NCBI GenBank assembly: GCA_020054065.1
Contig: JAGVLX010000021.1
Span: forward strand, 17,262-81,261
Direction of reading: 5' to 3'
Length of the DNA: 64,000 nt
Source of the DNA: Parachlamydiales bacterium
GTDB taxonomy: Bacteria > Chlamydiota > Chlamydiia > Chlamydiales > JAEYWL01
Below are positions 18,832-18,881 of this stretch, piece after piece. The position numbers and the translations under genes were made by a program. Within the stretch, counting starts at the first letter, position 1. Every line of letters begins with the position of its first letter. The notes below the pieces were generated by a model. The model was not told the DNA's origin and made no database searches. It saw only the letters and a list, made by a program, of their open reading frames with translations.

Positions 18832-18881
18832 GACAGGACACACACGACAAAGCCTGTCCTGTTTGTCGTGTGTGTCCTGTC
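18832..18881. repeat. Word-repeat hairpin (GGACA/CGACAAA family), copy 1
   Basis: Perfect 20-bp stem gacaggacacacacgacaaa / tttgtcgtgtgtgtcctgtc with a 10-nt loop, immediately 3' of the 202-aa gene. Confidence 0.8.

Follow-up and report, generated by a model that had tools for sequence, protein, structure and literature searches.

What kind of element forms the long hairpins, assembled from repeated GGACA/CGACA words, that stand directly behind stop codons in the genome of an uncultured chlamydia? The question arises from a stretch of 64,000 nucleotides (hereafter the window) of contig JAGVLX010000021.1 from the assembly GCA_020054065.1, which is assigned to a Parachlamydiales bacterium (positions 17,262 to 81,261 of the contig). 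The host is a Parachlamydiaceae-like (amoeba-type) chlamydia with a G + C content of 45%, whose closest named relatives according to the MalQ protein are Protochlamydia and Parachlamydia with 53-57% identity. Environmental chlamydiae are difficult to manipulate genetically, and next to nothing has been charted of the signals by which their transcripts are ended or divided; a recognisable and abundant element at gene ends would help to define their transcription units. The hairpins, here termed family A, are a new chlamydial variant, with a 9-nt unit, of the extragenic hairpin repeats that resemble short tandemly repeated repetitive (STRR) and repetitive extragenic palindromic (REP) sequences, and the family itself is real.

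Six sites with GGACA/CGACAAA words had been listed in the original prediction, and all of them were confirmed as five hairpins and one unpaired arm that occur far above chance. Copy 1 (18832-18881, minus strand) is a perfect 20-bp stem with a 10-nt loop, is composed of the words CAGGACACA and CACGACAAA, and folds with -36.2 kcal/mol (z = -7.0). Copy 2 (25099-25156, plus strand; -33.8 kcal/mol, z = -6.1) contains an 18-mer core that is common to copies 1 and 4, and copy 4 (51457-51540, minus strand; -44.6 kcal/mol) has five words per arm, which can pair in several registers. Copy 5 (59249-59337, plus strand; -52.4 kcal/mol, z = -7.4) consists of the words CACGACATA, CAGGACCTA, and CAAGACATT in strict 9-nt spacing, and its 30-nt arms match at 90%, including a perfect run of 20 bp. 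Copy 6 (62993-63086, plus strand; -54 kcal/mol, z = -8.5) has 28-nt arms that match at 89% and is made up of ten words of the forms AACGACCAA and AAGGACCAA. Copy 3 (46786-46813, plus strand), previously described as a half copy, is a solo left arm of three CAGGAC-type words without a complementary arm and yields no fold. When folded as RNA, the five hairpins thus have minimum free energies from -33.8 to -54 kcal/mol and z-scores from -5.5 to -8.5 relative to dinucleotide-preserving shuffles.

The arms had been described as series of loose words of 5-8 nt. The actual unit is a nonamer, CA[G/C]GAC[A/C]NN, which is present in 2-6 tandem copies and is faced by its complement in the opposite arm. 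The GAC (or GTC) cores are spaced by exactly 9 nt in 24 of 36 intervals, with 5-8 nt in the remaining ones, and Tandem Repeats Finder independently reported arrays of period 9 in both arms (in addition to 8-nt units). The A/C-rich arm with the GAC cores is always the 5' arm, whichever strand is read. The dialect differs from hairpin to hairpin: AA opens every one of the ten words in copy 6 (the "AA dialect"), and CA nearly all words of the other copies. The earlier statement that the design is kept while the word content varies is accurate.

Scanned for stretches of 60 nt with four or more [GC]GAC[AC] words or their complements, the 64 kb yielded exactly the five hairpins as clusters, all of which are intergenic and none of which lies in coding sequence. 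The word dimer CASGACNNNCASGAC was observed 15 times in the window (expected 0.02), and the 18-mer CAGGACACACACGACAAA was found nine times when up to three mismatches were permitted (expected 0.04). Because one and the same 18-mer and, collinear with it, a TGTCCTGTTTGTCGTGT segment occur in copies 1, 2, and 4 at three unlinked sites, these copies are homologous and not a case of convergent low complexity, which bears out the proposal of a dispersed homologous family. Copies 5 and 6 have only the unit design in common with the other copies.

Besides family A, the window contains at least two further word families. Family B comprises a hairpin at 11502-11575 (minus strand; words CTCTGTGAT/CTCTGTGTT, complement CACAGAGAA, 9-nt period), which is located 16 nt after the stop codon of an SDR gene (11592-12350, minus strand), a second hairpin at 14573-14671 (minus strand; words CACTGAG/CGCTGAG, complement CTCAGTG), 17 nt after the stop codon of a gene for 776 amino acids, and an array at 60968-61107 (plus strand), 20 nt after the malQ stop codon, in which CTCTGTGTTCTCTGTGTCTCAGTGG pairs weakly with CCAGTGAGCGCACGGAGAT about 100 nt upstream. 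Dimers of the family B words CACAGAG/CACTGAG were observed five times in the window (expected 0.06). Family C, with words of the GCAAAG type and the same architecture as families A and B, is represented by a hairpin at 52767-52868 (minus strand; three words GCAAAGAA, outer stem of 15 bp), 6 nt after the ychF stop codon.

All five family A hairpins occupy junctions between genes of the same strand, begin 0-27 nt behind the stop codon of the upstream gene, and end 21-104 nt ahead of the next start codon, in agreement with the original prediction that the copies lie immediately 3' of stop codons. Copy 1 follows the stop codon of a gene for 202 amino acids (18899-19507, minus strand) after 17 nt, with the next start codon 90 nt away. 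Copy 2 begins 2 nt after the stop codon of an ABC ATPase gene annotated as oppF (24404-25096), and the next open reading frame (ORF), which encodes 2335 amino acids (25261-32268) and has no Pfam match, starts 104 nt further on. Copy 4 is placed 27 nt after the stop codon of an RlmL-like gene and 21 nt before the start codon of a BTB-LRR gene, and copy 5 begins at the stop codon of a gene for a CesT-family chaperone and finishes 44 nt before malQ. Copy 6 likewise begins at a stop codon, that of a gene for 93 amino acids, and is followed by TTTTCTTTTCC. The solo arm (copy 3) lies in a convergent spacer of 42 nt, 5 nt after the ribF stop codon. When the sister families are included, the nine word hairpins of the window are all located in spacers that contain a gene tail, none being found in the five divergent spacers, and eight of the nine are nearer to the upstream stop codon than to the next start codon (one-sided p = 0.02). 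The elements have a density of about 1 per 10 kb in the window, which is higher if the sister families are counted.

The explanation that we favour, with roughly even confidence, is that the GGACA/CGACA hairpins are a dialect, specific to this lineage, within a wider class of intergenic hairpins built from tandem words, which are grown by slippage and provide transcripts with 3'-end or intercistronic structures. Slippage of the 9-nt unit would make the arrays grow and change. Periodic arms would permit pairing out of register and slippage, by which words may be added, removed, and homogenised, and both the excessive length of the stems and the existence of dialects would be due to these processes. 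Changes would subsequently be copied from word to word and from arm to arm, resulting in concerted evolution, and finished units would also have been copied between loci. As part of the tail of the upstream gene's transcript, a stem of 20-40 bp would fold into a very stable 3'-end or intercistronic structure, which most likely serves as a termination or attenuation signal, as an exonuclease barrier and/or as an RNase III-type processing site, and would in this way keep the expression of the two neighbouring genes apart.

Several points weigh against this explanation. The RNA-level role is one that we only infer, and the placement after stop codons could reflect the mere tolerance of selfish DNA at such sites. 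Copies 4, 5, and 6 lie only 21-46 nt from the next start codon, so that little space is left for a separate promoter if termination is complete. A consensus terminator scan of positions 44001-64000 called none of copies 4, 5, and 6 and performed at chance level overall, and among the 12 nt behind the stem only 3-7 in family A and 2-3 in family B are T. When G-U wobble pairs were used to determine the more stable strand, this was the strand of the upstream gene in five word hairpins and the opposite strand in three, with one tie. In contrast, the small conventional hairpins at other gene ends of the window (1715-1762, 5360-5395, 8840-8880, 12320-12372, 20165-20199, and 40858-40890) have their more stable fold on the upstream gene's sense strand in five of six cases, the sixth being a tie. 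Finally, one related element in a relative of the host (L003, see below) sits in the divergent spacer between gcpE and clpB.

It is very improbable, and largely refuted by the homology between the copies, that the hairpins are ordinary intrinsic terminators, which evolved independently at each gene end and are alike only through their low-complexity composition. Intrinsic terminators consist of a G + C-rich stem of approximately 5-14 bp with a small loop, followed by at least five T. The word hairpins resemble them in being located directly downstream of a gene and in the T-rich sequence behind some copies, with T-runs after copy 6 and on the plus strand of copy 4, and the small conventional hairpins listed above are situated at gene ends as well. 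However, the word stems are 20-40 bp long and thus exceed those of terminators 3-5-fold, and the U-tracts are inconsistent, being missing in most copies. Moreover, identical 18-mers and a collinear similarity over 45 nt (9-15 occurrences observed versus 0.02-0.04 expected) cannot arise independently at several loci. The suggestion of a lineage-specific terminator thus fails as far as a canonical intrinsic terminator is concerned, since the scan of positions 44001-64000 called none and the U-tracts are weak or absent.

The comparison with a sibling strain, which is available as two Logan contigs of SRR28285590 that cover window positions 40121-64000 at 92-98% nucleotide identity, comprised this one close strain and 24 kb of comparable sequence. 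Copies 4, 5 (covered parts), and 6 showed no substitution in 223 aligned nt and differed by single-base insertions or deletions only; copy 4 is free of substitutions, and the sole difference in copy 6 is an insertion of 1 nt. The background divergence between the strains amounts to 2.3-7.4% in coding and 0.4-9% in other intergenic sequence. Since about 4-6 changes would be expected in 223 nt and none was seen, the comparison suggests a constraint on the sequence of the family A hairpins. The family B array at 60968-61107 is also kept in the sibling, with one substitution in 140 nt, and the solo arm of copy 3 is found there too, altered by one substitution and the deletion of 2 nt and extended by another CACGAC word. 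Four family A sites were open to comparison (copies 3, 4, 5, and 6, a small sample), and each of them is occupied in both strains.

The family C hairpin after ychF at 52767 has a different history. At the same site (window 52744-52875 aligned to positions 6355-6479 of the sibling contig L011) the sibling possesses a hairpin with CGCAGAG/CACGGAG words: the series CGCAAAG-AAGCAAAG-GAGCAAAG is rewritten to CGCAGAG-ACACGGAG-ACGCAGAG, with complementary changes in the other arm, and the words at the ends (CGCARAG...CTYTGCG) and the flanks are still recognisable. Such word-by-word rewriting is the expected product of concerted evolution in a tandem-repeat hairpin, the alternative being a replacement by recombination. 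Exactly at this ychF-rlmL spacer the identity between the strains drops from 97.7% (40121-52743) to 92-93% (52875-59264), which suggests that a recombination boundary coincides with a hairpin. Two strains between which a hairpin was rewritten word by word offer concrete material on the origin of such elements and on what reads them.

Both the conserved sequences and the identity switch would also fit an array bound by protein at the DNA level, for example by a nucleoid, replication, recombination, or uptake protein that recognises GAC cores spaced by 9 bp in duplex or cruciform form, with the inverted arrangement enabling symmetric binding. The regular spacing of the cores, the conservation of sequence and not only structure between the strains, the absence of a preferred strand when wobble pairs were considered, and the identity switch at one hairpin are all consistent with this possibility. 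Nevertheless, it appears improbable: no candidate protein is known, a period of 9 bp disagrees with the helical repeat, the words vary between copies and families, and neither the strong bias toward gene 3' ends nor the sense-strand bias that solo arrays show elsewhere (see below) would be expected of a site that acts purely on the DNA level.

The sibling data also show that word hairpins break short-read assemblies. Contigs of the sibling end within word hairpins, twice within copy 5 and once within a CACAGAG array directly after the clpB stop codon (contig ends at L002 positions 1 and 10503 and L011 position 1), and the hairpins thereby explain some assembly breaks. Contig ends could accordingly serve to count hairpins.

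The wider distribution of the words was surveyed by exact-pattern scans and BLAST with short queries. Neither 185,579 GTDB species genomes nor the JGI metagenomes, collections that both lack the source genome, contained the family A 18-mer in hairpin context; the scans returned one and six chance matches, respectively, that had no hairpin context. Matches to the GGACA pattern in IMG/VR, plasmids, and phages were nearly all collagen-like or Gln/Pro-rich coding repeats and therefore unrelated, the exceptions being a few non-coding nonamer arrays (L083, L091, L080, and L132). Collagen-like (Gly-X-Y) repeats form long direct 9-nt arrays within an ORF, with GGN at every third codon. This origin was rejected for family A, as the arrays of the window have 2-6 units, are inverted, and lie outside real genes. 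In a comparison of syntenic junctions, which had been proposed along with the original prediction, the sibling keeps the family A copies that could be compared, and the syntenic loci of five relatives with 53-60% MalQ identity contain no family A clusters. Two of the five (L003 and L012, 57-60% MalQ identity) have hairpins of the family B type with identical word strings; CTCTGTGNTCTCTGTG is present in L012, and ACGCAGAGAC-NNN-GAGA is common to L003 and the sibling strain.

Family B words extend far beyond the Chlamydiota. An array with 19 specified bases, of the consensus (A/C)ACCACAGAGA-N-CACAGAGA-N-CACAGAG, was retrieved from 60 stretches of IMG/VR contigs (L016-L075) with G + C contents of 38-66%, which are rich in further 7- and 9-nt arrays. 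About ten of these stretches are full hairpins and the others solo arrays. According to crude gene calls, the solo arrays follow a stop codon at 6-26 nt and precede the next start codon by 9-70 nt, and the purine-bearing strand is the sense strand in approximately 9-11 cases versus one. CACAGAG-type nonamer arrays on plasmids in PLSDB start 6-35 nt after stop codons: megaplasmids of Gemmatirosa kalamazoonensis (L163) carry a nested family B-type hairpin directly after a TGA, plasmids of Bacteroides finegoldii (L165) a hairpin of this type that begins 6 nt after the lpxA stop codon, and Nostoc plasmids (L164) an array. Near-identical nonamer arrays thus occur in Chlamydiota, Bacteroidota, Gemmatimonadota, and Cyanobacteriota as well as on many phage contigs. 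The idea of a lineage-specific grammar survives in part, as the GGACA words were seen in this lineage only, but the architecture and the CACAGAG sister words are spread across phyla. No description of the family B consensus was found in the searchable literature, nor was one of these words or of such a family in Chlamydiae, although the coverage was incomplete and this is absence of evidence only.

These cross-phylum sister words are the most interesting lead. They permit the more far-reaching view, which we regard as unlikely on present data, that all nonamer arrays of the CAC-N-GAG/CA-S-GAC form, solo as well as hairpin, constitute a single undescribed class of intercistronic elements that is read by a conserved cellular machine. 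The GGACA hairpins would be one fast-evolving dialect of this class, and their concerted rewriting would be caused by a specific copying mechanism instead of generic slippage. Candidate readers may include the ribosome together with ribosomal protein S1, an RNase, or a nuclease or binding protein dedicated to these arrays.

The position of the solo arrays between stop and start codons directs attention to translation. The purine-bearing arm contains cores that resemble Shine-Dalgarno sequences (AGGA, GAGG, GGAG) and the other arm anti-Shine-Dalgarno-like UCCU/CCUC, and a terminating ribosome might melt the stem and thereby control loading or re-initiation on the next gene, with solo arrays acting as standby or enhancer sites. 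In line with this, the hairpins start within or near the footprint of a terminating ribosome (0-27 nt after stop codons), copies 4-6 are followed by a start codon at 21-46 nt, the IMG/VR solo CACAGAG arrays have the spacing and the sense-strand bias described above, the Nostoc plasmid array obeys the same rule, and translational coupling has been suggested as a role of STRRs (PMC2670836). We nonetheless give this explanation little credence, because the Shine-Dalgarno-like content may merely follow from the composition of the words, the gene calls on viral contigs are crude, copies 1 and 2 are 90-104 nt away from the next start codon, and the wobble test in the window was divided (five hairpins in agreement, three in disagreement, and one tie).

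The similarity of arrays in distant genomes also raises the question of mobility, and the original prediction had indeed likened family A to REP sequences and their composite forms, the bacterial interspersed mosaic elements (BIMEs), or to MITEs (miniature transposable elements with inverted repeats). In such a scenario a transposase encoded elsewhere would copy a selfish, non-autonomous hairpin into extragenic sites, effects on transcripts would be incidental, and the location after stop codons would represent tolerated insertions. In favour of this scenario, identical 18-mers and collinear segments are present at unlinked loci, and in relatives these hairpins are missing from the junctions of copies 5 and 6. 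Identical word strings of 14-19 nt recur across lineages with 57-60% MalQ identity and even across phyla, and AT-rich arrays are conspicuous in contigs with 60-66% G + C. Elements of 160-190 nt in Bacteroides and L003 have such arrays as their terminal inverted repeats, around interiors that are unrelated. Against this stands that the copies differ in number and order of words and not by point divergence from a master copy, that all four comparable family A sites are occupied in both strains, and that the lack of substitutions in 223 nt points to constraint. Furthermore, neither a transposase nor a REP-associated tyrosine transposase (RAYT) is encoded in the 64-kb window or a 6.5-kb extension, and neither target-site duplications nor a conserved end tag were detected. 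Taken together, mobility is possible but doubtful as an explanation.

The comparison with the individual classes leads to a similar result. REPs are extragenic imperfect palindromes, often located after gene 3' ends or inside operons, for which roles in termination and mRNA stabilisation have been proposed (PMC3733652). Family A shares with REPs and BIMEs the dispersed occurrence of extragenic imperfect palindromes at gene 3' ends. REPs are, however, 20-40 nt long, bear a tetranucleotide tag, and are linked to a RAYT, whereas the window elements measure 50-94 nt, with stems of 20-38 bp and arms of tandem words. The GTAG/CGTC tag is absent: there is no GTAG at the ends of copies 1, 2, and 4, those in copies 5 and 6 derive from the stop-codon context, and the sole CGTC/GACG is internal to copy 4. 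No RAYT was found among the 50 ORFs of the window or the genes called on the sibling contig L002. With MITEs of hairpin structure such as Correia/NEMIS and the cyanobacterial Nezha the word hairpins have in common that they are small non-coding intergenic elements, which have terminal inverted repeats and can fold as RNA; in the Bacteroides plasmids (L165), in L003, and at window positions 60968-61107, word arrays form outer arms around an unrelated interior. In contrast to MITEs, the window elements have no target-site duplication (the flanks of all five family A hairpins were checked), no parental insertion sequence in the window, and no fixed length, and family A is almost entirely stem. 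Between the two strains one sister hairpin was rewritten, and none was gained or lost in this small sample. Neither the REP/BIME-like nor the MITE-like assignment is supported by these comparisons. The window also contains no tRNA gene, no lineage-specific multi-copy protein family, and no Rfam match at the gathering score; a permissive search yielded only weak hairpins of the miRNA-precursor type far below the threshold.

Two genes next to copies had been considered C-terminally short. The gene ribF (46220-46780) is not truncated. Its product of 186 amino acids has the same length in the sibling and is an FAD synthetase only, without a riboflavin kinase domain, a form common to many of its nearest homologues, among which stand-alone FAD synthetases of 183-192 amino acids, aligned end to end, are frequent; in addition, no open frame for a flavokinase remnant exists in plus-strand frame 1 after the stop codon. 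The oppF product, with 230 amino acids, indeed lacks the C-terminal extension of Opp/Dpp proteins, but it has a complete ABC ATPase domain like LolD and FtsE, and because no remnant is present after the gene, its truncation by the element cannot be shown.

Among described repeats, the STRRs of cyanobacteria are the class closest to the word hairpins. These are tandem units of 7 nt that form hairpins between genes of filamentous cyanobacteria and have been proposed to act in transcript stability, translational coupling, or termination (PMC2670836). The function and the spread of short tandem repeats with units of 7-9 nt, including STRRs and their relatives, have been a question ever since their description in cyanobacteria. 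In both cases short intergenic units in tandem can pair with arrays of inverted orientation, so that hairpins arise between genes of the same direction (hupS-hupL being an STRR example), and several unit families exist per genome, as illustrated by the three word families of the window; a CACAGAG-type array even occurs on Nostoc plasmids. The window elements differ in their unit of 9 nt instead of the classic 7 nt, in their words, and in their chlamydial host as opposed to heterocyst-forming cyanobacteria, and they are mostly paired into long hairpins that abut stop codons. Family A thus has the tandem-unit arms, the several families, and the intergenic location of STRRs but neither their 7-nt unit nor a cyanobacterial host.

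Simple sequence repeats with units of 6-9 nt have rarely been reported (PMC4692102). In Xanthomonas, the mean distance of the GGGAATC repeats from the upstream ORF is 28 nt, and the downstream ORF is far away (PMC4692102); the word hairpins likewise tend toward the upstream gene. The TAACTGA repeats of Beggiatoaceae are common to several phyla, with no transfer mechanism known (PMC4679880). Like the word arrays, the GGGAATC, TAACTGA, and Nostoc GGGGAYT repeats are intergenic tandem repeats of variable length whose position is conserved between related species. Unlike them, these heptamers are mostly direct arrays, form G-quadruplexes, or stand just upstream of start codons, and they do not build long hairpins.

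Other features of the window and of the compared contigs deserve a brief description. The window carries a type III cluster (cdsU-cdsV-copN-scc), the block rpsA-nusA-infB-rbfA-truB-ribF, and an opp operon. The genes at 47549-49828 and 49942-51435 encode eukaryote-like RasGEF and BTB-LRR proteins, and in a search of 5.8 billion proteins the only bacterial homologues of the BTB-LRR protein were those of the strain pair itself. In the relative L003, cdsV (FHIPEP; 5512-7688) was called as five fragments, which indicates a pseudogene or frameshift errors in the assembly. Contig L013 contains two copies of a near-perfect palindromic element of about 100 nt (11641-11760 and 18451-18570) close to fragments of IS630-type transposases; this MITE-like family is unrelated to the word hairpins. 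Another kind of element is also represented by a near-perfect inverted repeat of 148 nt at window positions 33509-33656, between a convergent brnQ-like gene and a gene for 653 amino acids, which has 64-nt arms that match at 89% (approximately -94 kcal/mol) and consists of the three nested sub-palindromes GCGGTAACTTGTTACCGC, GCGCGACTTGTCGCGC, and GCGTGACCAGTCACGC. In the divergent spacer upstream of cdsU (54120-54195), the 33-nt unit TATGGATATGCATCCTAGCATTTGCACGCCTGG occurs twice as a direct repeat with a distance of 10 nt, and this spacer is among the regions most diverged from the sibling strain.

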